Made by a program: the position numbers and the translations under genes. Under the pieces are notes generated by a model. That model was not told the origin of the DNA and did no database searches. It worked only from the letters and a program-made list of their open reading frames with translations. DNA of 64,000 nt from Candidatus Microgenomates bacterium (GTDB taxonomy: Bacteria > Patescibacteriota > Microgenomatia > UBA8517). The stretch is from the NCBI GenBank assembly GCA_049519355.1, contig JBEKQV010000002.1, positions 67,479-131,478 on the forward strand. The letters are read 5' to 3'. Each line of letters starts with the position of its first letter. Position 1 is the stretch's first letter. Of the stretch, positions 1,291 to 12,776 are shown piece by piece.

Positions 1291-1367
1291 GGTGGCTGTA
1301 GCTCAACGGCTAGAGCACTAGGTTGTGGACCTAGGGGTTGCGCGTCCGAATCGCGTCAGCCACCCCA
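1291..1367 (+). tRNA. tRNA-His (anticodon GTG) with genome-encoded G-1 and CCA
   Basis: Cloverleaf folded by hand: G-1 pairs with discriminator C73, acceptor GTGGCTG/CAGCCAC, D-arm GCTC..GAGC, anticodon stem CTAGG/CCTAG with loop TTGTGGA (GTG), T-stem GCGCG/CGCGT, 3' CCA at 1365-1367. The T-loop reads TCCGAAT, with C where U55 is expected. Confidence 0.85.
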
Positions 1368-2987
1368 ATTGTTTTGAGGTGCATAATGATCGTGTGTTTG
1401 TGCCGTAAATATGACATTATCTCCAGGTTCGAGCCGTTTAGAGGTAGAATACCTACTATCTAAGAAGTCTTTAATCTTCAGAAAAGGAATACGAGGCTGA
1501 ATATCCAATTTCTTGCCTGAAAGAGTCAAGTACGAGCCAATACCTCTAAGAACCAATCTTTTTGTACTCAGATCACCTTCAATAAATCTTTGCCGGGCTT
1601 TTGAGGCAAAATCAAATGTTTTTACGGTTAAGTCGTCCCATTCGTCGTTTCCCATGTCAAAATTATCCAAAGCTACTTTTGCCTGATCGCGCTCGGCAAT
1701 AAGTCTATCCATTTTTGATCTATACACTTCCTCCGGCATTCCGGATGACAATTTAAGATCCACAAGACCTTCTATTTTAGACGCCGCGCCATCGTAAGAA
1801 TCTTTTATGGCTCTAAGTTTTGATTCTCTAAATTTTCTATCTTCATTCGTAAGATATTTACACCATTCAGCAGCCCAAGTGGCAAAATCCGGGTCAACTT
1901 CAACGGTCTCCAAAAAATCCGCAACTTGTTTTTCAAGGGCGTTAGCGCTTATGTAAAGTTGATTGCAAATCTTGGTTTTACTTTTCTTCGTACACCTGTA
2001 ATATCTGAACTCTTTAGATTTACCATTTTTGTAACGCTTTATATGTCTTTCGCCACAGATCGCCATGCCACATTCACCACACCGGACAAGCCCACTAAGT
2101 GTAAATTCTAAAGGTTTTTGGGGTCGAGACTTGCCATTATCTTCAAGGATTTCCTGAACAAGTTCATATTCTTCGTCCTTGAGCATTCTCTCATGAATAC
2201 CTTTGTGAATTTTACCTTCATAAATAAATCTTCCTGCATAAAACGGATCACGGAGTATCCGGTACATCTGGCTTTTACCGATTTCCCGTCCCAGACTGTT
2301 CTTTAATCCCATTTTGCTTGCCTCCCTAGTTAACCCGCTTACGGAAAAATCTCTGGTCATATATAATTCAAACAGCTTTCTCATTAACGGAAAAGTTTTT
2401 GGATCGGGAAGTATGTCTCTTTTACCCTGAGGCTTGGTTTTATCGTTGATGAATCCGGGAGGTGCCAAAATCGGCGCGATTCCTTGTTCAACTTTGAAAT
2501 GAACACCCCTCATAGAGGCTTTACGGAGGTCCAGAATGTATTGATTAGCCATTCCACCCTCAAGGGATACCAATATCGCAGAATCTTCAGACTTGAAAGT
2601 TCTTTCCATGGTAACGATTTCATCAATTACACCTTTCTGGAGCATCCATTGAAGTTTTCCGGTATCAATTGGGTTTCTTGAAAGACGATTAAAATGCCAC
2701 GCAACTATTCCTTTTATGTCCTTCCTTTCGAGTGCAAGATCCGTCATCCGATCAAATTCAAGCCTGCCGGGTTGTTTAGCACTTTTGCTTTCTTCAAACC
2801 GCTTGAGAATCGGAAGATTCAACCTTTTTATAAGTTCATTATTTTCGCGGCTCTGATCCTCCAAACTTTGGACTTGCCGTTCATCGCTTTCCGAACTCTT
2901 GCGTGTATAAACCAAGTAATATTTTTTCACTACTGGCTCGGTTTTTTTACTTGTTCGTTCTTGAAAAATATCTTCGATAGTACCCAT
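1356..2987 (-). CDS. Large serine recombinase (resolvase/invertase catalytic domain + recombinase domain + zinc ribbon)
   Basis: 543 aa. N-terminal YLVYTRKSSESDERQVQSLEDQ matches the serine-recombinase catalytic motif around the nucleophilic Ser. A CGECG...C zinc-ribbon region and a C-terminal coiled coil are typical of large serine integrases. The last 12 nt, including the stop, overlap the 3' end of tRNA-His on the other strand. Confidence 0.85.
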   Translation of the reverse strand: MGTIEDIFQERTSKKTEPVVKKYYLVYTRKSSESDERQVQSLEDQSRENNELIKRLNLPILKRFEESKSAKQPGRLEFDRMTDLALERKDIKGIVAWHFNRLSRNPIDTGKLQWMLQKGVIDEIVTMERTFKSEDSAILVSLEGGMANQYILDLRKASMRGVHFKVEQGIAPILAPPGFINDKTKPQGKRDILPDPKTFPLMRKLFELYMTRDFSVSGLTREASKMGLKNSLGREIGKSQMYRILRDPFYAGRFIYEGKIHKGIHERMLKDEEYELVQEILEDNGKSRPQKPLEFTLSGLVRCGECGMAICGERHIKRYKNGKSKEFRYYRCTKKSKTKICNQLYISANALEKQVADFLETVEVDPDFATWAAEWCKYLTNEDRKFRESKLRAIKDSYDGAASKIEGLVDLKLSSGMPEEVYRSKMDRLIAERDQAKVALDNFDMGNDEWDDLTVKTFDFASKARQRFIEGDLSTKRLVLRGIGSYLTLSGKKLDIQPRIPFLKIKDFLDSRYSTSKRLEPGDNVIFTAQTHDHYAPQNNWGG

Positions 2988-2989
2988 AA

Positions 2990-3160
2990 TTATCTGTCTT
3001 TACTCGTTTGTGTCAATCCTCTTTTAGTTTTTGCCTCCGCGAGGACTCGATACAGCGCTACCAAATTATTTGCTTCATCCACAGCCTGCTTATCAGAAAG
3101 GTGAATATCCTTCTTTTTACAAATTTCTTTGAATTGTTTAATTGCTTCTTCCGGTAACAT
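2990..3160 (-). CDS. Small hypothetical protein (56 aa), possible recombination directionality factor or accessory protein of the integration module
   Basis: Hand-translated: MLPEEAIKQFKEICKKKDIHLSDKQAVDEANNLVALYRVLAEAKTKRGLTQTSKDR. A strong SD (GAAGGAGG) lies about 12 nt upstream. Its start is 1 nt after the upstream gene's stop (TGAtATG), and its stop is 3 nt before the recombinase ATG. Under 60 aa, so not in the ORF track. Confidence 0.35.
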   Translation of the reverse strand: MLPEEAIKQFKEICKKKDIHLSDKQAVDEANNLVALYRVLAEAKTKRGLTQTSKDR

Positions 3161-3161
3161 A

Positions 3162-3806
3162 TCAGCCGTAATCGTTTTGTTCCTCCTTCAATTGCTTAAT
3201 CGCATTCCAGAAGTTTTTTGGGTGTGGCGCGTAAGGCTTGCATGCGTATTCGTCCCAAATTTTATTGATCCTATCGAAACCCCACTTTTGAATCGTATGA
3301 GTAATCTGAAGTCTGACGGCATATTCCGGAGCCAAGGTATTAAATTCCGGTAAGGTACACCACTTAACAATTTTTTCTATTAGCTTATTTTCATCCTCAG
3401 AAAGTTTCTGTTCCCATTTATTAGAAACATCTCTATAGATATTCTTAGTCTCTGTGTTATTAGGCTCAGTATTATTAGGGAGAAGATTTTGTAACTTATC
3501 AGGAGAACATTCCTTCACAATAGATGTGAAGTTTTCTTCACCAATGAATTTGTAAATATTGGATTGCGAATAACCTCTCCGCTTAAAGTCAATAATTTGT
3601 TTTTTTCTTAAAGATCGGAGGTGTGCATTTATAATTCTCCTGCTTTTCCCCCGGATTCCGGCTATTGTTGCCTGAGACGGGAAAACCTTGCCTCTTTCGC
3701 CGTATTTGTAGCTTTTTAGCAAACATAGCGTCCTAAACTCGGCATCGCTAATGTTCTTGTCTTTAATTAGAAAGTTTGGTATTTGAGTAAAATCTTTGTT
3801 TTTCAT
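3162..3806 (-). CDS. Winged-helix/HTH DNA-binding protein, replication-initiator-like (plasmid/phage RepA/DnaD-N-like)
   Basis: 214 aa. N-terminal FTQIPNFLIKD...DAEFRTLCLL...GKVFPSQATIAGIRGKSRRIINAHLRSLRKKQIID is the usual phage/plasmid replication-initiator HTH pattern. It sits in the operon with the recombinase. Confidence 0.5.
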   Translation of the reverse strand: MKNKDFTQIPNFLIKDKNISDAEFRTLCLLKSYKYGERGKVFPSQATIAGIRGKSRRIINAHLRSLRKKQIIDFKRRGYSQSNIYKFIGEENFTSIVKECSPDKLQNLLPNNTEPNNTETKNIYRDVSNKWEQKLSEDENKLIEKIVKWCTLPEFNTLAPEYAVRLQITHTIQKWGFDRINKIWDEYACKPYAPHPKNFWNAIKQLKEEQNDYG

Positions 3807-3976
3807 GCTTTTTCTTTCTCTCTATCTTTCAATATGGGAACCAAAATGAAGCCTTTCCCGCCGCACGCATGGCATTGAACTCTTTTGAAGGAAACAGTAC
3901 CCCAACCGTTGCATACTGGGCATCTCTGGGCTATGTAGGATGGTTTTATCTGTGCCGGAATAATATTTTCTGTCAT
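3803..3976 (-). CDS. Small zinc-ribbon protein (57 aa, two CxxC pairs)
   Basis: Hand-translated: MTENIIPAQIKPSYIAQRCPVCNGWGTVSFKRVQCHACGGKGFILVPILKDREKEKA. Its stop overlaps the downstream ATG (ATGA). Not in the ORF track because it is under 60 aa. Confidence 0.4.
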   Translation of the reverse strand: MTENIIPAQIKPSYIAQRCPVCNGWGTVSFKRVQCHACGGKGFILVPILKDREKEKA

Positions 3977-3995
3977 ATTTCTTTCGTTTTGTCAC

Positions 3996-4021
3996 AAAAA
4001 AAGCGACCCTGAAAAGGTCGC
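3996..4021 (-). terminator. Intrinsic-terminator-like hairpin on the minus strand (GCGACC-7 nt loop-GGTCGC followed by T7)
   Basis: Forward 3996-4021 reads AAAAAAAGCGACCctgaaaaGGTCGC. On the minus strand this is a perfect 6-bp GC stem followed by 7 T. It sits about 20 nt upstream of the zinc-ribbon gene start, so its role is unclear: terminator of an upstream minus-strand transcript, or a 5' hairpin. Confidence 0.4.
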
Positions 4022-4252
4022 CAAATAAAAACTTTTGGAAACGATTGCTCTTCAGTAATACCTGAATAGTCAACCGTTCCAACTTGTTAGGTCGTTCTGA
4101 CTCCCCGAAGGCTTCCGTTCCGAATTACAATTTTCTGGTTGAGAAAACTAATTGTTCGTTAAGGGTCTCCTCGGATTCGCGTCAAAACGCCGCAAATCAA
4201 AACAAACTTTTTAAGATTTTAACTAATGAAATTATTACATATGAGGCTGTTT

Positions 4253-4288
4253 TTGTCAATCTTTATAAGAGATATTTAGTTGTATAAT
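4253..4288 (+). promoter_or_regulatory. Candidate promoter for the TIR-like gene (TTGTCA ... TGTATAAT)
   Basis: TTGTCA at 4253-4258 and TATAAT at 4283-4288 preceded by TG. The 24-nt spacing is too long for a canonical -35, so mainly the extended -10 is supported. ATG at 4302. Confidence 0.25.
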
Positions 4289-4301
4289 CCTGATTGAAAC
4301 T

Positions 4302-5207
4302 ATGAGAAAAGCGAGAGTGTTTATTAGTTGTGGGCAAGATCCGGAAGAAAAAAAGGTCGGCTTAAAAATTGTTGAGTATTTTAGAAAAAGAGGTTTTGAT
4401 CCTTACTTCGCGGGAGAAGTTCAAACACCCGAAGCGTTAACTAGAGATATTTTTGAATCACTAAAAAGATCTGAGTATTTTATAAGTATAAATTTTGAAC
4501 GATCGGAACTTAATTCAGGATCACTTTTTGTCCGACAAGAATTTGCCATTGCAGCATTTTTAGGAATAGAGATGTTAGCCTTTCACAAAGGAAAAGATGC
4601 AACTTTGACAGGGAAAGGCACAGGAATTGGAAATTATTTGGTATTAAAGAGTATTGAATTTGTTTCCGTTAAAGGTTTGTTAAAGAATTTGGACAAAAAC
4701 ACCATGCATTGGGATTCTAATTCTGTTCACGGATTGAAATTAGAGTTTGGTAATTACCATAGCAATGTTGTCGTTAGTAATAACCCCAACGGTCCTCTAA
4801 CAAATTGGATTCATGTAATCGTGTCTAATACGAGTTCAAAATTCTATTGTAAAAATTGTTGCGCTTATGTTGATGAAGTCGTTGACCTAATCAATAAAAA
4901 GGTAATTATTGGCAAAAATGATTATAAGACTGAACTCGTTTGGTCAGGCGCCGGAGCCTTCACAATTAACATTCCTCAAGGTGGAAAAAGAGATTTTGAC
5001 GCCTGTTATTGGGCGCAAGGCACGAACGCATTGGTTTTTCATCAACTTTCAATGTCAACTTTTTATAGATACCCCAATTTGAATTTTGGTAAATATAAAA
5101 TTCGTTATGTTATTATTTCTGAAAATTTCCCAGCTTCCAAAGTAGAGGCAATTATTGAGTTTCGTAAAACTGGAATATCAGTTCTGAGCTTTGTACAAAC
5201 TGAATGA
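4302..5207 (+). CDS. TIR-like domain protein (N-terminal ~100 aa) fused to an uncharacterised beta-rich C-terminal domain (~200 aa); candidate defence/NADase-type effector
   Basis: The N-terminus ARVFISCGQD...GFDPYFA...IFESLKRSEYFISINFERSELNSGSLFVRQEFAIAAF follows the TIR pattern (FISxxxxD ... S-yF-vlS ... S-W/F-xxxE, with a candidate catalytic Glu in VRQEF). I could not relate the C-terminal part to any known family. Confidence 0.5.
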   Translation: MRKARVFISCGQDPEEKKVGLKIVEYFRKRGFDPYFAGEVQTPEALTRDIFESLKRSEYFISINFERSELNSGSLFVRQEFAIAAFLGIEMLAFHKGKDATLTGKGTGIGNYLVLKSIEFVSVKGLLKNLDKNTMHWDSNSVHGLKLEFGNYHSNVVVSNNPNGPLTNWIHVIVSNTSSKFYCKNCCAYVDEVVDLINKKVIIGKNDYKTELVWSGAGAFTINIPQGGKRDFDACYWAQGTNALVFHQLSMSTFYRYPNLNFGKYKIRYVIISENFPASKVEAIIEFRKTGISVLSFVQTE

Positions 5208-5238
5208 CAGTCTCGCAGCATACAACACACCTTTTCTA

Positions 5239-5463
5239 TTAAAACATTTCTTTTACCTTAATGTGGAGAGCGCGACCCAATTTGGCTAGCGTCTTTACCG
5301 AAACATTCCTTTTTCCATTTTCAAGCTGATTGTAAAAACTATAATCTAGCCCAGCCTTATACGCTAAATCTTCCTGCGTCATTCCTGCTTCGCGCCGGAG
5401 TTTTCCCAACCTCGCACCGATCTTTTTGTTGACTATAGTCATAGCCAAAGTATGGCTAGACAT
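5239..5463 (-). CDS. XRE-family helix-turn-helix transcriptional regulator
   Basis: 74 aa. IGARLGKLRREAGMTQEDLAYKAGLDYSFYNQLENGKRNVSVKTLAKLGRAL is the classic Cro/C1-type HTH. Confidence 0.8.
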   Translation of the reverse strand: MSSHTLAMTIVNKKIGARLGKLRREAGMTQEDLAYKAGLDYSFYNQLENGKRNVSVKTLAKLGRALHIKVKEMF

Positions 5464-5477
5464 TTACATAAAGTGTA

Positions 5478-5507
5478 TTGACTATAACCAATATTTAACC
5501 ATATACT
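5478..5507 (+). promoter_or_regulatory. Candidate sigma70-like promoter (TTGACT-18 nt-TATACT) for the 5520 gene
   Basis: TTGACT at 5478-5483 and TATACT at 5502-5507, with the ATG at 5520. The 5' UTR would be very short. Confidence 0.3.
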
Positions 5508-5510
5508 CAA

Positions 5511-6029
5511 TTGATACAGATGAATATTTTCCTTTTTCTTCTGGCAGTTTTTGTAATTGCTGTTGTTTATCAAACATTTAAGCTCAAGCGTGAATCCGGA
5601 AAAGATTTTGAAAATAATTTAGTAAGAGCTTGGAAACAATACGATACGATCATGACTTACGATAAAGAACCGTTTGTGAGAGATGGCAAACCGGATCCTG
5701 TCTTAATTAAGTTCCAAGAGAGAACCAAAAAGGACTACGAAATGTATAAAAAATTGATAATGAGGTATCCCGACATTCCACGGCACAATAAAGCCAGAAT
5801 GGCAATCGACGATAATTGGTGTTTGTTGCTACAGACAGTATTTATGCTCTCTGGCTACCAAGTCATTGATTCCGCTGGACGCAGAAATGAGAATTTTACA
5901 AAGAAAAAATATGTATCAGACCAAACTGACCAGAAGCGAAGAAATTCTGAGATTGAACTAGATGAATATGAGAATTTTTTTAAGAATAAATTAAAAGAAT
6001 CTGAAGGAAAAGCCCCCCTACCGCTATAA
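5511..6029 (+). CDS. Hypothetical membrane-anchored protein (single N-terminal TM, charged soluble domain)
   Basis: The ORF track starts at TTG 5511. The in-frame ATG at 5520 (MNIFLFLLAVFVIAVVY...) is the more likely start. No recognisable domain. Confidence 0.45.
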   Translation: MIQMNIFLFLLAVFVIAVVYQTFKLKRESGKDFENNLVRAWKQYDTIMTYDKEPFVRDGKPDPVLIKFQERTKKDYEMYKKLIMRYPDIPRHNKARMAIDDNWCLLLQTVFMLSGYQVIDSAGRRNENFTKKKYVSDQTDQKRRNSEIELDEYENFFKNKLKESEGKAPLPL

Positions 6030-6084
6030 ATCGCTTTCTTAAAACAATCGTTTAGGCGTAAAAAAAGTGTTAGAATAAGCCAGA

Positions 6085-7827
6085 ATGGCGAAAGATTATT
6101 CCACTTGGTCAAAACCGGAGCTAATCCGTGAGTTAAAAAAAATCGGCGAAAGAAAAAAATACGGAATTGTTTGGGAAGATAAACCTGAGGAAGTTGTTGA
6201 ATTGTGTAAGACAAAGCTCCCAGTTCTCGAAGAACTTAAAAAGCGTGAAATAGCAACATCAAAGGAAGATCCCACCAATATTCTTATCGAGGGCGACAAT
6301 TACCACGCTCTTTCTGTCTTAAATTACACACATAAAGGAGAAGTTGACCTAATTTATATTGACCCTCCATACAATACGGGTAGCAAAGATTTTGTTTATA
6401 ACGACCGTTATGTTGATACAGAAGATGGCTATAGGCATAGCAAGTGGCTCAATTTTATGGACAAAAGACTAAGATTAGCAAAAAATCTTTTAAAAAATGA
6501 TGGAATTATATGTATTAGCATTGACGAGAATGAGCAAGCACAACTAAAACTTTTATGTGATGAAATATTTGGTGAAACTAATAGAATTTCTACCCTGCAT
6601 ATTCAGGTTAGATATTCCGGAAAGACTTTGAATGAGAAAAACGACTGGCAGCCCGTAATGGAATATGTATTAATTTATGCAAAAAATGGAAACTCCTTTA
6701 GAGCAAACAAACCAACAGTTGAATATTCAATTGATAAATTTAATTACGAAATAAAAGAATTGACTCAGGGGACTGAGATTCTGGTAAAAAACAGAAGGGT
6801 AACTATATTTAAAAAAGGTGAATGGAAAATACTAAAACACACAGAATCTGGTAAAAATCTTTTAAAAGAGACTTGGGTTTCTGGAAGCATATATTCAGGA
6901 ACAGGAAATGGAACAATGGTTCAAAATGTAATCGAGCCGAGAGTGCTGGTTGACGGATATGGAAGCTTATACAAGATCGAAGGTCTAGGAGAAGATGGTT
7001 TGGGATTCCGTTATTTTACCGGTCCTCAAAAGGTTGGAGCAACAAGAAGCAAGATGTACACAGGTATTCCGACGGTTAGAGCAGAAGAATTAAATGAAGG
7101 AAATGCTGTTAGATATTTATCTATTCCTAACTATTACGATTTTAGTCCTGACTTTGGAAATATAAGAAGTGAGGGCGGCGTTCCTTTTAATAGCGGTAAA
7201 AAACCAGTCAAAATGTTGAAACAAATTATTAACTACCATAAGAATAAAAATGCTACTATTCTCGATTTTTTTGCCGGTTCTGGTACAACTGCACACGCTG
7301 TTATGGAAATAAACAAATTCGACTCCGGATCCCGAAAATTTATTCTGTGTACAGACAATGAGGATAATACTGGTAGCGGTACTAAAATAGCTGAGGACAT
7401 ATGCTATCAAAGAATAATGAATGTTATTAAGGGCTATAACCATAAAACCGGATTGGGCGGTACATTAAAGTATTTTAAAACAGCGTTTGTTGACAGTGCG
7501 CCATCGGACGAGAATAAAAGAATATTGGTTGACAAATCTACTGAAATGCTTTGTCTTAAGGAGGATTGTTTTGACAATCTCACTGAGGGTAAAGAATACA
7601 AAGCATTTACCAATAGCAAAAACAATCTTCTTGGAATCATTTATGATGATGCCGGAATAGAACCTTTCAAGAAATTTATTAGAGAGACAAATAAGAAATT
7701 TGTAGTTTATGTTTTTTCCCTCGATGAAAGTGCACGAGAAGAAGAATTTGAAGATATTAGAAAATTGGTGGAGCTCAAACCTATTCCTGCGGTTATATTA
7801 AATGTCTATAAGAGAATTTTCAAATGA
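6085..7827 (+). CDS. mod: Type III restriction-modification system methyltransferase subunit (Mod), N6-adenine, beta-class
   Basis: 580 aa. Motif IV DPPYNTG lies upstream of motif I ILDFFAGSGTTAHAV, the order and sequences characteristic of Type III Mod proteins (EcoP15I-like). 4-nt overlap (ATGA) with the downstream res. Confidence 0.8.
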   Translation: MAKDYSTWSKPELIRELKKIGERKKYGIVWEDKPEEVVELCKTKLPVLEELKKREIATSKEDPTNILIEGDNYHALSVLNYTHKGEVDLIYIDPPYNTGSKDFVYNDRYVDTEDGYRHSKWLNFMDKRLRLAKNLLKNDGIICISIDENEQAQLKLLCDEIFGETNRISTLHIQVRYSGKTLNEKNDWQPVMEYVLIYAKNGNSFRANKPTVEYSIDKFNYEIKELTQGTEILVKNRRVTIFKKGEWKILKHTESGKNLLKETWVSGSIYSGTGNGTMVQNVIEPRVLVDGYGSLYKIEGLGEDGLGFRYFTGPQKVGATRSKMYTGIPTVRAEELNEGNAVRYLSIPNYYDFSPDFGNIRSEGGVPFNSGKKPVKMLKQIINYHKNKNATILDFFAGSGTTAHAVMEINKFDSGSRKFILCTDNEDNTGSGTKIAEDICYQRIMNVIKGYNHKTGLGGTLKYFKTAFVDSAPSDENKRILVDKSTEMLCLKEDCFDNLTEGKEYKAFTNSKNNLLGIIYDDAGIEPFKKFIRETNKKFVVYVFSLDESAREEEFEDIRKLVELKPIPAVILNVYKRIFK

Positions 7828-10022
7828 TTTACTTAAAGGATTACCAAAAAGAAGCTGTAGCGAGTCTAAAAGAAACTGTAGAAAAGTTATTGAGGTCATC
7901 TGAGCGTGAGATTTGTATTTTTCAAGCTCCTACCGGAAGTGGAAAAACTGTTATGGTTTCGGAACTTCTTAAAGATTTAGTGAGAGATAGAAAAGACGAC
8001 AAAAAGTTTTCTTTTGTCTGGATTTCAGTCCGGATGCTGCACGAGCAAAGTAAGGAAAAGCTTGAAAAATATTATGCAGATGACAGGTTACTTCAATGTT
8101 CATATTTTGAGGATTTGGAAGATAAAAAGATTGGCGAAAACGAAATCTTGTTTATTAACTGGCAAAGCATAAATAAAAAAGACATAAACATTTATGTCAG
8201 AGAAAACGAGCAAGACAATAATCTTAACAGCGTAATTCAAAATACAAAAGAAGAAGGGCGCGAAATAATACTTATTATCGATGAAAGCCACCACACAGCG
8301 GGATCCGAAAAGTCAAAGGAACTGATAGAAGTAATTAGTCCGAAAGTAACGATTGAAGTTTCTGCTACCCCGCAACTAAAAGAAGGTATCGGCGGATACG
8401 AGAAAATTAATCTGAGTGATGTAAAAGCGGAGGAAATGATTAAGTCTGAAATTTCGGTAAATCCAGAGTTCACAAATGTTAAGGTTGGGTCAGAAAGTGC
8501 GGATGAACTTGTCATAGGACAAGCGTTAAAGAAACGAGAAGAATTAGCAAACCTATACAGGAAATCTGGATCAAATATAAACCCCCTTGTATTGGTTCAG
8601 TTGCCAGATCAAAAAAGCAGCTTGATTAGTAAAAAAGAAGATGTTCTAAAAATTCTTAACGATAAATTCGCTATCAATGAGAAAAATGGAAAATTAGCAG
8701 TTTGGTTATCAGAAGAAAAAACAGAAACACTTGCCAATATCGAGAAAAACGATAATGAAGTCGAGGTTTTGGTTTTCAAGCAAGCCCCTGCACTTGGCTG
8801 GGATTGTCCAAGAGCGTCAATACTTATAATTTTTAGGGAAACCAAGAGTTTTGTTTTTACGATTCAAACGATTGGTAGGATTATGCGTATGCCAGAATTG
8901 AAATACTATTCCGAAGAAGAATTGAATAAAGGCTTTGTATTTACCAATCTTCCGAATATTGCAATAACCGAGGATTACGCAAAAGATTATGTCACGATTT
9001 ACGAAGCCAAAAGAAGCGCGGAACTTTACAAAGACATTTCCTTGCCGTCAATATTTCTAAGGCGACAAAGGGAAAGAACAAGATTATCCGGAGAATTTGT
9101 TACCATCTTTCAAAAAGTTGCAAATGAAAACGATCTCAAAAATCGAGTAGTATTTACTCCTTCAAAACTAGTAAATCCAATAATTGCAGATGGTAGAATC
9201 GTCAATGTTGACCAAGCGGGCGAAATTGAACATAAAGGAGTAATTGAAGTTAAATTAAATCCGCTTGAACTTCAACAGCTTTTTGATAGTTTTATCTCGC
9301 AGAATTGCTCTCCATACGCTCCAGTAGATTCAAGCGATAGAATGAAAACCGCCATTTATAATTTTTTTACAATAAATTTCAAGATTAGGAAATTTGATCC
9401 GACTGTCCAGCGTATAGTTCTAGGTAAGGAAAATGTGCAGGCATTCGTTGACACAATAAACTTGGCTAAAGAAAAATACCAATTGGAAATTGTTAGGCAA
9501 CTTAGTGAAAAAAGGGAACTTCAGACAACCCCAGAATGGGAAGTTCCGGTAATAGTTACCTATAACAGCAGGTATATCAGTGAAAATAAACCAAAGTCTA
9601 TTCTTAAGCCCTATTACACCAAGAAAGCCAGTGAACCGGAAATGTTATTTATTGAGCTCTTAGAAGGATCAGATAAGGTTAAATGGTGGTTCAAGAATGG
9701 TGAGAGCGAAATTAAGTATTTTGCAGTCTTGTATAAAGATGAAGCGGAGATTGAACACGCTTTTTATGTTGACTTTATCGTTCAATTTACCGATGGAAAG
9801 ATAGGTTTATTCGATACCAAAAAGGGAATAACTGCCAAAGATGCAAAAATGCGAGCAAAAGGTTTAGCACGCTACATAAAAGAGCAGTCAAAGAAAGGAA
9901 GAAAGATATGGGGTGGTATAGCGGTATATGTTAACGGTAGTTGGAGATATAACGAAAGTGAAGATTATGTCTATGAAGAAGGTAATCTGTCTAAAGATTG
10001 GAAATTTCTTAATCTTAATTAG
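7824..10022 (+). CDS. res: Type III restriction enzyme Res subunit (SF2 helicase + C-terminal PD-(D/E)xK nuclease)
   Basis: 732 aa. Walker A QAPTGSGKT, DEAH-type IIDESHH, and a C-terminal VDFIV...FDTKKG that is PD-(D/E)xK-like. Translationally coupled to mod. Confidence 0.75.
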   Translation: MIYLKDYQKEAVASLKETVEKLLRSSEREICIFQAPTGSGKTVMVSELLKDLVRDRKDDKKFSFVWISVRMLHEQSKEKLEKYYADDRLLQCSYFEDLEDKKIGENEILFINWQSINKKDINIYVRENEQDNNLNSVIQNTKEEGREIILIIDESHHTAGSEKSKELIEVISPKVTIEVSATPQLKEGIGGYEKINLSDVKAEEMIKSEISVNPEFTNVKVGSESADELVIGQALKKREELANLYRKSGSNINPLVLVQLPDQKSSLISKKEDVLKILNDKFAINEKNGKLAVWLSEEKTETLANIEKNDNEVEVLVFKQAPALGWDCPRASILIIFRETKSFVFTIQTIGRIMRMPELKYYSEEELNKGFVFTNLPNIAITEDYAKDYVTIYEAKRSAELYKDISLPSIFLRRQRERTRLSGEFVTIFQKVANENDLKNRVVFTPSKLVNPIIADGRIVNVDQAGEIEHKGVIEVKLNPLELQQLFDSFISQNCSPYAPVDSSDRMKTAIYNFFTINFKIRKFDPTVQRIVLGKENVQAFVDTINLAKEKYQLEIVRQLSEKRELQTTPEWEVPVIVTYNSRYISENKPKSILKPYYTKKASEPEMLFIELLEGSDKVKWWFKNGESEIKYFAVLYKDEAEIEHAFYVDFIVQFTDGKIGLFDTKKGITAKDAKMRAKGLARYIKEQSKKGRKIWGGIAVYVNGSWRYNESEDYVYEEGNLSKDWKFLNLN

Positions 10023-10048
10023 AACCTAGAAATTTTGTATTAGTTTTT

Positions 10049-10459
10049 ATGCCCGTATCTAAAAAGGAAGAATTGTGTGCCTATCATGAAGCCGGGCATG
10101 CGGTGTTGGCTGTTATATTAGGTATGCCCGTTGAATCTGTGAGTATGAAGGATCGCGTAACGAAATATAAAGTTGAAGGTAAAATACGCGATAGTATCTT
10201 GGTATCACTTGCAGGGGCTTTTGCAGCACAACATATCGATAAAATGGGACTGACCGCAGCAGATGACCTTTACAAAGCAAAGCGACTGCTAATCGAAGGA
10301 GAAAATATCGAATCATTCGAAAGAGAGGCAAAGAGACTTGTGAAAAAACATAAAAAAATAATCCACGCTGTAGCCTTAGAATTGTTATCCAAAAACTGCT
10401 TAACCGGAGAGGAGGTAAAAAGGATTGTGGACATACATTTCTTACCTCAACAAACTTAG
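10049..10459 (+). CDS. Stand-alone FtsH-type (peptidase M41) zinc-metallopeptidase domain protein, no AAA+ or TM region
   Basis: 136 aa. AYHEAGHAV is the M41 HExxH site. TAADDLYKAKRL matches the FtsH third zinc ligand region (GASNDLERAT). The whole protein corresponds only to the C-terminal protease domain of FtsH. Confidence 0.6.
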   Translation: MPVSKKEELCAYHEAGHAVLAVILGMPVESVSMKDRVTKYKVEGKIRDSILVSLAGAFAAQHIDKMGLTAADDLYKAKRLLIEGENIESFEREAKRLVKKHKKIIHAVALELLSKNCLTGEEVKRIVDIHFLPQQT

Positions 10460-10719
10460 CTTAGCATGTTAATTATCTAAGTGTATGGTACCCTTGGTCG
10501 CATGTGCAGTATTAGGTTAAATATTAATACGATTCCCCCAATATAGTATTTACAATGATCTAGCCTCAAATGGGTATGTGATTTACTCAAAGTTGTGCTT
10601 GAGACAATTGATGAAACTGATAGTCATTAGATAACATTTGTTTTAGAAATTCTTTTTCTTTGTCTTGATTAAGTTTCCAATAAGTTCTAACATCGTTCAC
10701 TAGGTCACCCAATATTTTC

Positions 10720-10728
10720 TGATATAAT
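10720..10728 (+). promoter_or_regulatory. Extended -10 element (TGaTATAAT) 7 nt upstream of the dsbA-like ATG; the mRNA is probably leaderless
   Basis: TGATATAAT at 10720-10728, ATG at 10736. There is no room for a Shine-Dalgarno. Confidence 0.35.
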
Positions 10729-10735
10729 ATTTACT

Positions 10736-11428
10736 ATGGATTTTTTGAAAAGAAATAAGGTATTTATTATCGTCGTTCTGGCAACTTTGGTTTTGCTCAT
10801 AGGAGGAATTTATTTATTCTCGAGAGGCAGTGGGAATTCAACAACATTAAGTAGCACCGTAAGTTCCTCCCTTTTAATACCCCAAAATGATTACGAAACG
10901 TCCGGTATAGTCAACGGAAATTATTTGCTCGCAACTCCATCGGCCAGTGTTACTCTTGTAGAATTTGGTGATTATGAATGCCCGGCGTGCGGCGAATACC
11001 ATCCGATGGTTAAGCAGCTTTTAACTGATTTTGCCGGCAAAGTTATTTTTGTTTTTAGAAATTTTCCGCTTTCTCAACACTTGAACGCCCCAATTTCGGC
11101 GTATGCAGCAGAAGCCGCCGGGCTTCAAGGAAAATTCTGGCAAATGCACGACAAACTCTACGAAACACAAAATGATTGGTCAGGCTCAACCGACGCGAGA
11201 AGTATATTCATTGGTTATGCTAAAGATTTAGGTTTGGATGTTACTAAATTTACGGCAGATATAGATTCCTCAGCCGTTAAGAATAAAGTTCAGAGCGATA
11301 TGAATGACGGGAATACAATTGGAATTAATGAAACACCGACATTTTTCCTTAACGGATCCGAACTTAATCTTACCGGCTCTTCTAATGAACTTGAGACTGA
11401 TGTTCAAAAAGTGCTTAACGGAAAATAG
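10736..11428 (+). CDS. DsbA/BdbD-family thiol:disulfide oxidoreductase (thioredoxin fold), membrane-anchored
   Basis: 230 aa. N-terminal TM helix. A CPAC active site sits in VEFGDYECPACGEYHP, the DsbA-type context. Confidence 0.75.
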   Translation: MDFLKRNKVFIIVVLATLVLLIGGIYLFSRGSGNSTTLSSTVSSSLLIPQNDYETSGIVNGNYLLATPSASVTLVEFGDYECPACGEYHPMVKQLLTDFAGKVIFVFRNFPLSQHLNAPISAYAAEAAGLQGKFWQMHDKLYETQNDWSGSTDARSIFIGYAKDLGLDVTKFTADIDSSAVKNKVQSDMNDGNTIGINETPTFFLNGSELNLTGSSNELETDVQKVLNGK

Positions 11429-11432
11429 TCCG

Positions 11433-12776
11433 TTATTTTCTGGAGATCGTATAATTTGTCGGGTAATATAAAAAGGCAGCAGGAGAATCTTCAACCAAGA
11501 ATCTTTGGAAATCCAAATAAATTTGCTTTCTGTCCTCGATACTAATTGTACTTCGGCCGTCTTCAAGAAGTTTATCAATCCTGGGATTTTGATAGTGCGT
11601 AATATTTGTCGCGGTTTGTGTTGAGTGCCAGATTGAGTACTGATCGGGATCGTTTGGAATATCAAAAATCGCCAAGAAAGCCTGGTAATCAGAAGGGACA
11701 TTGGAAATTACCTGTAAGCTAACATTGACACCAATTGCCTGCCAATCTTTCGAAATGCTTTCGGCTTGGGTTAAAAGAATGGGTGGAGTCGTTAGTGTGA
11801 TTGAAAGGCTGCCGGTTTTTGCACTTGTTTCATAATCCTCAACCATTTGCTTGGCTTTTACGGGATCGTAATCGTAGGGCTTCACTTGAGGATTATATGC
11901 CCAAGAATCTATTGAAATCGGACTTATAGCTCTTTCGCCGCCAAGTGCGCCTTTATTGATGGCGTATGAAAGCGCCTGACGGAGGTTTTTATCTGATAGG
12001 GTCTTATCTTGAGTATCAAAAAATACCGCTACATATTCCCCGGTATTTGAAGTTTTATCTATTTTGACTTTTGGCCAAGACGAAAAAGGACTGGGATCAA
12101 GAATTCCTATTATTTGATCAACGTCTCCCAGTTCAAATGCCAATTTTGTATCATCTTCGGTAGGATAAAATTTATAAGCGATTCTATCGCCGTTTTTATT
12201 AACTAAATTTATTTGTTGAACATATGACCCGTTTAAGGAAATACTTGAAACTTTCCAAGCCCCGGTACCCAGAAGCCCCATCCTGAAAGTCGGCCTGGAA
12301 ACAACAGAAGGAAAAGCCGAATATGGATTCTGAAGTTCAAAAGTTATAGTAGCATCATCAGGCCGGAGAACAGTGACATCCGAAAACTCATAAGTAATAC
12401 CTGAACTTGTAACTTTTTTTCCGTCTTGCCAATAAACTCCTGAACGCAAAGTGAAAACCCAGGTCTTACCGCCATCAGGCGATTCCCAAGACGAAGCGAG
12501 ATCGGGTTCGACGTTTCCGTTTTTATCAAGCTTGGTTAGACCGTCACCGACCATCTCGAGAACATTATCAGGAAGCGAACTAACGGTATAAAGTCCTGTT
12601 AACCCTATCCTTGTGCTTTGACCTGAGGACAAAACAGGCAAAAGGTAACGAAGGAGAAAGAAAAGAACAATGCCAAGTCCTACACAAGCTAAGATAATGA
12701 TTTTAAAACGGCTAAAAAATGCTCCCACTAGCCTTGCAATGTATCGGAAATTAAGCATCGGTAAGTTATACCACAA
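11433..12776 (-). CDS. ABC transporter substrate-binding protein, family 5 (peptide/nickel type)
   Basis: 447 aa. N-terminal anchor. Length and motifs (e.g. YDPVKAKQM, DPDQYSIWHS) are typical of SBP_bac_5. Confidence 0.65.
   Translation of the reverse strand: MWYNLPMLNFRYIARLVGAFFSRFKIIILACVGLGIVLFFLLRYLLPVLSSGQSTRIGLTGLYTVSSLPDNVLEMVGDGLTKLDKNGNVEPDLASSWESPDGGKTWVFTLRSGVYWQDGKKVTSSGITYEFSDVTVLRPDDATITFELQNPYSAFPSVVSRPTFRMGLLGTGAWKVSSISLNGSYVQQINLVNKNGDRIAYKFYPTEDDTKLAFELGDVDQIIGILDPSPFSSWPKVKIDKTSNTGEYVAVFFDTQDKTLSDKNLRQALSYAINKGALGGERAISPISIDSWAYNPQVKPYDYDPVKAKQMVEDYETSAKTGSLSITLTTPPILLTQAESISKDWQAIGVNVSLQVISNVPSDYQAFLAIFDIPNDPDQYSIWHSTQTATNITHYQNPRIDKLLEDGRSTISIEDRKQIYLDFQRFLVEDSPAAFLYYPTNYTISRK

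Follow-up and report, generated by a model that had tools for sequence, protein, structure and literature searches.

The 64-kb window (the whole stretch of DNA analyzed here, 64,000 nucleotides of contig JBEKQV010000002.1 from a host annotated as Candidatus Microgenomates) very probably carries an integrative element of ~9.35 kb (1361-10710) that was inserted by its own large serine recombinase (LSR) into the last nucleotides of a tRNA-His gene and whose integrase gene was split by the insertion. The island extends from ~1361 to ~10710 (~9,345 bp). An integrated element with a serine recombinase at the 3′ end of tRNA-His had been predicted from the DNA letters alone, and this core claim is borne out by syntenic relatives free of the LSR and by the location of both attachment (att) sites. 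Two features go beyond what the original prediction anticipated: the integrase gene is split, and LSRs across the clade use tRNA 3′ ends.

In the proposed mechanism, the attP core (sense TGGGGTG, codons Trp-Gly) lies inside the integrase frame, 39 codons before the natural stop, and is identical to the antisense of the acceptor/CCA end of tRNA-His. Recombination keeps the tRNA intact, with the element contributing C75 and A76. The integrase body remains at attL, ending ..NNWG-G* by way of the tRNA antisense, and the last 39 codons are moved 9.3 kb to attR, adjoining a gene for a DsbA-like protein. The tRNA T-loop/T-stem most likely serves the integrase as the zinc-ribbon-domain motif of the attB half-site; in attP this role would fall to a look-alike, GTTAGAAC, which consists of the Val-Arg-Thr codons of the integrase's own tail and is placed 5 bp farther out. 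The features on which this mechanism rests are as follows.

1292-1367, plus strand: tRNA-His(GTG), called in agreement by ARAGORN and Rfam (60.9 bits)
1356-2987, minus strand: LSR, prophage (truncated) form, 543 aa, with Resolvase, Recombinase, and Zn_ribbon_recom domains
1361-1369: attL core CACCCCAAT; the shared CACCC corresponds to tRNA positions 70-74
10587-10712, minus strand: orphan open reading frame (ORF) of 41 codons encoding MGDLVNDVRTYWKLNQDKEKEFLKQMLSNDYQFHQLSQAQL, the severed native LSR C-terminus (..LGDLVNDVRTYWKLNQDKEKEFLKQML..) and element half of attR (P arm)
10706-10713: attR core CACCCAAT, 22 nt upstream of the DsbA-like ATG (10736)
Predicted attP: ..CATCGTTCACTAGGTCACCCCAATTGTTTTGAGG.., with the junction ...TAACATCGTTCACTAGGTCACCCCAATTGTTTTGAGGTGCAT...
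Predicted attB: ..GTCAGCCACCCAATATTTTCTGATATAAT.., with the junction ...CGCGTCAGCCACCCAATATTTTCTGATATAATATTTACTATGG...

The Integrase and Its Overlap with tRNA-His

The tRNA-His gene has its G-1 at 1291 and an encoded CCA, and the segment 1291-1367 (plus strand), G-1 included, is the host half of attL (B arm). The sole long ORF opposite the tRNA is that of the LSR, and the two overlap by 12 nt. Read as the reverse complement, tRNA positions 65-67 (1356-1358) give the LSR stop TGA, 1359-1367 give the codons G, G, and W, and tRNA positions 65-76 give the entire W-G-G-* end. The Asn codon that precedes it, at 1368-1370, falls just beyond the tRNA. The overlap had been recognized correctly from the outset; it comprises three codons plus the stop, not the four codons originally counted, and the sequence whose reverse complement encodes NWGG* is TCAGCCACCCCAATT, which differs from the string then quoted. 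The overlap is not due to chance: the same LSR/tRNA arrangement recurs in every relative whose contig extends to the end of the gene. It is explained by the attP core sitting within the integrase reading frame.

By every sequence criterion (catalytic residues, Recombinase domain, zinc ribbon with coiled coil, and short core), the LSR is a serine integrase. It matches PF00239, PF07508, and PF13408 with E-values of 2.3e-11, 7.5e-11, and 6.3e-12, respectively, as well as the PHROG category “integrase” at 1e-60. The catalytic R29 and the nucleophilic S31 are invariant in an alignment of 30 LSR sequences, and the AlphaFold2 (AF2) model of the homologue P0072 has long paired helices (361-471) between the zinc-ribbon strands. 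No variant C-terminus was found in the 90% cluster of the LSR.

Gene callers treat this ORF unevenly. JGI calls for L001/L011 (Ga0427927_000003) are without the LSR and leave a 1.6-kb gap at 10770-12401, probably on account of the overlap with the tRNA. The LSR is present in the ENA and Logan calls, and the NCBI call is 524 aa in length, with a later start.

The Severed C-Terminal Tail

The first clue to the split was a stretch of ~50 nt upstream of the DsbA-like gene (~10677-10725) that is conserved with a related element, L066, and that corresponds to a small ORF on the LSR strand. This orphan ORF is homologous to the tails of LSRs that do not end in a tRNA (P0028, ..LPNDVRTYY..; P0072, ..GPLANSVRTYY..). 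A tail profile built solely from the C-termini of such homologues was searched against six-frame translations of the 64-kb window and 17 loci. It matches the window at 10590-10730 (minus strand, E 3.5e-6), the best window match over the six frames, and also L066 (4.5e-7) and L026 (3.5e-5), in each case on the LSR strand and at the distal end of the element.

Joining 2987-1362 to 10706-10590 produces an in-frame ORF of 581 aa whose alignment with native homologues of 560-572 aa runs end to end and passes through the junction. Against the 572-aa P0072, a single high-scoring segment pair spans the junction (query 19-576, subject 15-568). In relatives on tRNA-free contigs, the tail is fused in frame (..GDLxxDVRTY..). 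Two such contigs with native-tail LSRs, L082 and L083, have annotated neighbors on both sides of the LSR that all serve replication or recombination functions, and a distant LSR on an IMG/VR viral contig ends ..LLGDLDDVRTYG... On the basis of the tail-profile match, the in-frame join, the tRNA-free native-tail contigs, and the IMG/VR LSR, attP lies within the integrase gene, and the gene is split. Residues 1-542 of the prophage LSR are native, and Gly543 and the stop derive from the tRNA antisense; integration swaps 39 codons for one Gly codon plus a stop.

The 41-codon tail ORF is stop-free though separated from the gene body, and the same holds for three other full elements. The AF2 model of P0072 renders the tail as moderate-confidence helices after a disordered linker, and because of these predicted helices a role of the tail at the protein level is possible. 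The strong conservation of “VRTY” probably reflects, at least in part, a constraint on the DNA. The full-length tailed integrase may be the integration-competent form of the free element, and the tail-less prophage enzyme may differ in activity, stability, or directionality. That the gene split is functional and that, in parallel, the clade as a whole recognizes the tRNA T-loop and acceptor end as an attB half-site is a joint reading to be entertained tentatively.

Attachment Sites and Crossover

In a frame-preserving alignment of attL and attR, CACCC is the shared block, and identity between the two stops at tRNA position 70. In the sense orientation the core reads as Trp/Leu-Gly codons (TGG GGT vs TTG GGT), and equivalent cores are present in L066, L026, and L024. 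A search of 10400-10800 for a partial tRNA repeat had been suggested, and such a repeat is indeed found there, at 10706-10713, with a length of 5-8 nt only. Core genes resume at 10736, as predicted, with the start of the DsbA-like gene; the proposed end of the block at 10459 has to be moved to ~10710.

A second LSR element in the same species provides a true within-species occupied/empty pair. In strain L002 an unrelated LSR (524 aa, 23% identity) reads into tRNA-Arg(TCT), and this LSR is absent from strain L001 (L002:1-4136 vs L001:1-4136, which is ~5.3-9.4 kb left of window position 1). The tRNA-Arg element carries a DUF87/TrwB-like ATPase; the element-free L001 has an array of tRNA-Leu, Leu, Val, and Phe after tRNA-Arg. 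The two strains are identical through tRNA position 74 and then diverge, with the element again giving C75 and A76. By analogy with this polymorphism, the crossover at tRNA-His would lie in CACCC, with its exact dinucleotide inferred.

The reconstructed attB, ...CAGCCACCCAATATTTTCTGATATAATATTTACT-ATG(DsbA), resembles the empty site of L034 (..CAGCCACCCACAATTTG..), which is also without a complete encoded CCA. At least C75 and A76 therefore come from the element, whose share in rebuilding the tRNA is no more than its last 2-6 nt. The earlier proposal that the element restores the tRNA 3′ end holds for these few nucleotides and fails for a long 3′ segment.

The arms flanking the core share a motif at different distances. 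In the tRNA arms, antisense T-loop NNCGAAC always begins 12 nt from the core end. The element arms all have a look-alike (TTAGAAC, TTCGGAC, or TACGAAC, corresponding to Val-Arg-Thr codons in the tail) that begins 17 nt from it. The arms covered are those of four attL/attR pairs, L043, L083, and the tRNA-Phe pair L040/L082. In attR of this island, the motif at 17 nt is TTAGAAC. At the level of sequence, the element arm and the tRNA arm are offset by 5 bp. The asymmetry that defines serine-integrase sites is a zinc-ribbon-domain motif that lies 5 bp farther out in attP than its counterpart in attB (PMC3783163). The zinc-ribbon domain probably reads the T-loop/T-stem in attB.

Other searches bearing on the att sites were negative. 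At six loci, comparison of the 60 nt nearest attL with the remainder of the element revealed no inverted repeat above the null. A 12-nt inverted repeat in L024 was discarded since it lies inside a gene and its central dinucleotides are mismatched. The candidate attR sequences CCCCCAAT at 10535, CATTTGTTTT at 10634, and CCTCAAATGGG at 10563 were superseded by the tail-ORF result. Nucleotide alignment of the region upstream of DsbA with L036 and sister species was too diverged to fix the boundary by itself.

In the reconstructed empty site, the DsbA-like start is ~24 nt after the end of tRNA-His, with TGATATAAT ~10 nt before the ATG, which implies that the DsbA-like mRNA of that site is leaderless or cotranscribed with the tRNA. 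After integration, the upstream promoter context of the gene (10714-10735 region) is element DNA.

A Family of tRNA-Targeting Integrases

The 120 closest homologues of the LSR (38-57% identity) were classified by their C-termini. At least 92 end in tRNA antisense (His, Asp, or Phe). Within the set, 59 stop as (W/V/L/M/I)G(G/D/E)*, the antisense of the acceptor stem, and at least 31 continue through a tRNA, with T-arm/D-arm antisense signatures such as DSNPQP, GIRTR, and LPLSY. The tRNA-Phe type is represented by two homologues, and another seven to nine carry a different, mutually homologous (native) tail. DNA sequence confirms tRNA-His adjoining the LSR in L024/L025, L026, L043 (an IMG/VR contig), and L066, tRNA-Asp in L037, and tRNA-Phe in L039-L042. 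The LSR family thus targets tRNA 3′ ends family-wide. By nature, the clade may consist of broad-range, tRNA-targeting serine integrases that act through the universal T-loop and acceptor end.

Occupied, Empty, and Scarred Sites

Exact look-ups of both flanking host proteins retrieved 23 or more contigs (up to ~870 kb) from many samples. The island is present, with identical attL and attR, on every contig that reaches the region and is therefore fixed in the sampled population. Every sampled strain carries it, so its present-day mobility is putative.

The comparison with empty sites that had been recommended thus has a divided outcome: no sampled same-species strain offers one, and more distant relatives (L021, L034, and L073-L081) are free of the element. 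L021 (a Woesebacteria genome) and L034 (a metagenome contig) preserve the synteny: MFS or tRNA-His lies to one side of the site, and SBP, (SecG), holin, UvrC, transglutaminase, and UvrA lie to the other. Neither has an LSR, and only one or two unrelated small genes follow tRNA-His. A scan of a genome collection for the MFS flank returned one true relative only. L036, with synteny that includes DsbA, is an internally deleted element: it retains just an 88-aa LSR C-terminal stub ending ..SWGG* in tRNA-His and, ~650 bp from the stub, a tail-like ORF (MTNVRTNF..) by DsbA (L036:6784-7050 and 6144-6515; also L029). In L066 and L067, the same interval from tRNA-His to SBP is occupied by another LSR element of the family (42% identity, ~9.7 kb).

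Sister species (DsbA 79% identical; L073-L081) are without the LSR, and their tRNA-His has the opposite orientation. There, tRNA-His plus 70 nt of upstream flank are inverted relative to the window, and a degenerate copy of the LSR tail (..DLTND..VRLYNK..) lies upstream of DsbA (L073:5833-5972 and 9900-10000; L077/L078). This copy suggests an old attR scar combined with a local inversion. The existence of empty, deleted, and differently occupied relatives identifies the interval after tRNA-His as a hot spot and the 9-kb block as accessory. The original prediction had named two findings that would speak against it, relatives carrying the same genes without the recombinase and a housekeeping resolvase without att sites; neither was encountered. 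On a separate note, UvrB of one sister species is annotated with intein (Intein_splicing, LAGLIDADG) domains, giving a 1211-aa product (L078:14031-14808).

Element Backbone and Cargo

Between the LSR and the host gene that follows attR, the island has the following genes.

2990-3160, minus strand: 56-aa protein, conserved directly upstream of the LSR in sister elements and intact here
3162-3806, minus strand: HTH_36 protein, replication-initiator- or DnaD-like, 214 aa
3803-3976, minus strand: CxxC Zn-ribbon protein, 57 aa; a backbone gene common to the L024 and L043 elements
4302-5207, plus strand: cargo protein, 301 aa, with a TIR/nucleoside-2-deoxyribosyltransferase-like N-domain and a C-terminal beta-sandwich
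5239-5463, minus strand: XRE/C-protein-like HTH regulator; a backbone gene common to the L023, L024, L026, and L066 elements
5511-6029, plus strand: 172-aa cargo protein with no family match
6085-7827, plus strand: Type III restriction-modification (R-M) methyltransferase (Mod); PADLOC MTase_III, 2.9e-81
7824-10022, plus strand: Type III R-M restriction/helicase subunit (Res); PADLOC REase_III, 1.9e-18
10049-10459, plus strand: HExxH cargo protein, 136 aa, with a weak Peptidase_M41 match over ~20 residues only
10736: start of the DsbA-like host gene

The gene content had been described largely correctly from the letters: HTH_36, Zn-ribbon, XRE, Type III R-M, and M41 assignments stand, with the M41 match being weak and the “TIR-like” label applying at the level of predicted fold only. 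The backbone shared with sister elements comprises the LSR, the 56-aa protein, the Zn-ribbon ORF, XRE, and a replication protein, which is HTH_36 here and a primase or helicase in the sisters. The 56-aa protein is a candidate recombination directionality factor (RDF) or accessory factor. Past XRE the cargo differs from element to element, with CHAT, SLFN/AlbA, Trypsin, methyltransferases, and SNase in the sisters. In this island the Type III R-M, 172-aa, and HExxH genes lie beyond XRE, and the 301-aa cargo gene sits among the backbone genes.

The 301-aa protein has no sequence-family match. Its AF2 model has a pLDDT of 90, and the N-domain matches BcmB, DNPH1, NDT, SPARTA TIR, RPPT-TIR, TIR-STING, and SARM1 with E-values of 1e-4 to 1e-3. 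The protein, a probable defense effector, has invariant Glu residues. Mod and Res are adjacent with a 4-nt overlap and form a Type III R-M system.

The 325-bp region at 3977-4301 is gene-free and divergent, with a GC-rich hairpin at ~3996-4021; some pipelines call a 67-aa ORF at 4084-4287. The tRNA T-arm shares TCGCGTCA with this region, a match not above chance. In sister elements, GP3_package (small-terminase-like) and primase/helicase genes occur (L023:6284-6745, L040:1542-2030), which hints that some family members are phage satellites or small temperate phages and not plain islands.

Alternative Explanations

Several points weigh against insertion by the LSR with a split of its gene. The core is just 5-8 nt in length and insignificant taken alone, and no convincing dyad symmetry exists between the two element arms. 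Among the 23 or more same-species contigs there is no empty-site strain, nor any attP/attB junction of this element. L082 and L083 are clipped loci whose circularity is putative, and the truncated 543-aa enzyme may be inactive. The tRNA-His T-loop (1345-1351) reads TCCGAAT, that is, U55C, and differs from the canonical TTCGA(A/G/T) found in all related tRNA-His genes (L021, L027-L034, L036, L029) and in the window's four other tRNAs. This change falls inside the proposed zinc-ribbon motif of attL and might impair recognition or affect excision. Some of these observations recur in the main competing explanation, in which the island is an old, immobilized (domesticated) remnant that no longer excises and whose LSR is a relic or has another role. 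It is the least improbable of the alternatives, though still unlikely. Identical att sites in all same-species contigs from many samples, the lack of the predicted attP junction in IMG/VR, U55C in the tRNA arm, core flanks that differ between attL and attR, and decayed versions in relatives (the L036 stub and the L073 scar) would all be in keeping with such a remnant. It sits less well with an intact LSR ORF with conserved catalytic Arg and Ser, an intact 56-aa partner, a tail that has remained stop-free despite its separation here and in three other full elements, and the demonstrable polymorphism of a different LSR element in the same species.

The remaining alternatives concern the event itself. 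A crossover deeper in the tRNA (e.g., in the T-loop), with the element bringing a long replacement 3′ half as tyrosine-integrase islands do, is very improbable. No displaced tRNA-His 3′ fragment was found by a 15-mer search with up to three mismatches, and the best Smith-Waterman match of the T-arm plus acceptor against 1400-12000, at 4160-4185, is no better than those of shuffled queries. The end of attL/attR identity at tRNA position 70, the acceptor stem that is perfectly paired in every host, and the divergence of L001 and L002 only past position 74 point the same way; the natural palindromy of the T-arm and the atypical T-loop TCCGAAT, which could hint at a foreign origin, are what a deeper crossover has in its favor. 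Slightly less probable again is a mobile unit limited to the LSR module (1356 to ~4300), with the defense genes at 4302-10459 being resident or a separate island. The gene-free gap with its hairpin at 3977-4301 and a fall in GC content after 4000 lend themselves to that division, and 4036-4300 had originally been named as an alternative boundary. Shared backbone genes flank this boundary on both sides, however, since Zn-ribbon (3803-3976) and XRE (5239-5463) both belong to the backbone of sister elements, which are similar in size and have variable cargo past XRE. The severed tail and core repeat at 10587-10713 and the same-synteny relatives without anything between tRNA and DsbA/SBP also contradict it. 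Finally, it is barely credible that the LSR is a housekeeping resolvase or invertase whose ORF merely happens to extend into the tRNA, given the same-frame overlap in dozens of homologues with three different tRNAs, the absence of the gene from syntenic relatives, and the complete three-domain integrase architecture; that explanation would draw on the generic Resolvase domain, beyond which it finds nothing, and on similarity to XisF and Ccr recombinases in NCBIfam that is sub-threshold only.

Comparison with Known Systems

The LSR shares many traits with those of phages and integrative and conjugative elements (phiC31, Bxb1, A118/LI, SPbeta, TP901-1, CcrAB, and XisF): (i) the Resolvase, Recombinase, and Zn-ribbon domains with a coiled coil, (ii) simple att sites with a very short common core, (iii) an integrase gene located at the element end by the att site, (iv) a small adjacent ORF that could be an RDF, and (v) a half-site motif shifted by 5 bp, as for the LI integrase (PMC3783163). 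It differs from them in that the target is the extreme 3′ end of a tRNA, attP lies in the integrase coding sequence, and the hosts belong to the Candidate Phyla Radiation (CPR). In a survey of precisely mapped islands, t(m)RNA genes were used by only 14 of 297 serine-integrase islands, a use “not reported previously”; the figure for tyrosine integrases was 44.5% (PMC7192596). Full-text searches within one library of papers found no report of Patescibacteria LSRs with a tRNA, nor of attP within a serine integrase gene.

Genome engineering relies heavily on serine integrases, whose natural use of tRNA genes has been regarded as both rare and lacking validation. The present clade is large, coherent, and systematically tRNA-targeting, and its att sites can be read from sequence. 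Islands of this kind are under-detected because gene callers drop or truncate integrases that overlap a tRNA, and the severed tail is never annotated. As the predicted attB is a conserved tRNA end, it could yield an integration system for CPR/Patescibacteria, for which few genetic tools exist.

Classical tyrosine-integrase tRNA islands (P4-like, Islander/TIGER) resemble this element in having the integrase by the tRNA 3′ end, a functional tRNA, accessory or defense cargo, and hot-spot variability. Unlike them, with their duplication of 15-50 nt of the tRNA, it shares 5-8 nt, which fits the chemistry of a serine recombinase.

Integration-dependent immunity of mycobacteriophages (BPs and Brujita) is the nearest bacterial analogy: attP lies in a coding sequence, and the viral and prophage forms differ in their C-termini (PMC3694055). 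In those phages, the repressor is split, the integrase belongs to the tyrosine class, and the part lost is a degradation tag of demonstrated function; here, in contrast, the integrase itself is split.

The archaeal SSV-type “suicidal” integrases (SSV1, pTN3, and pT26-2) likewise carry att in their own gene, and insertion into a tRNA partitions that gene to opposite ends of the element. They are tyrosine enzymes reported to be exclusive to archaea (PMC8371274). The present system has the att site within the ORF and lacks the tyrosine fold and the archaeal host. The SSV-type enzymes are cut through the body, whereas in the bacterial serine recombinase just 39 of the 581 residues, at the C-terminus, are lost and every known domain is retained. 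If the split is indeed functional, it would be the bacterial serine-recombinase counterpart of both the suicidal integrases and the integration-dependent switches. The self-splitting integrase, described as an exclusively archaeal tyrosine trait, has a bacterial serine version here.

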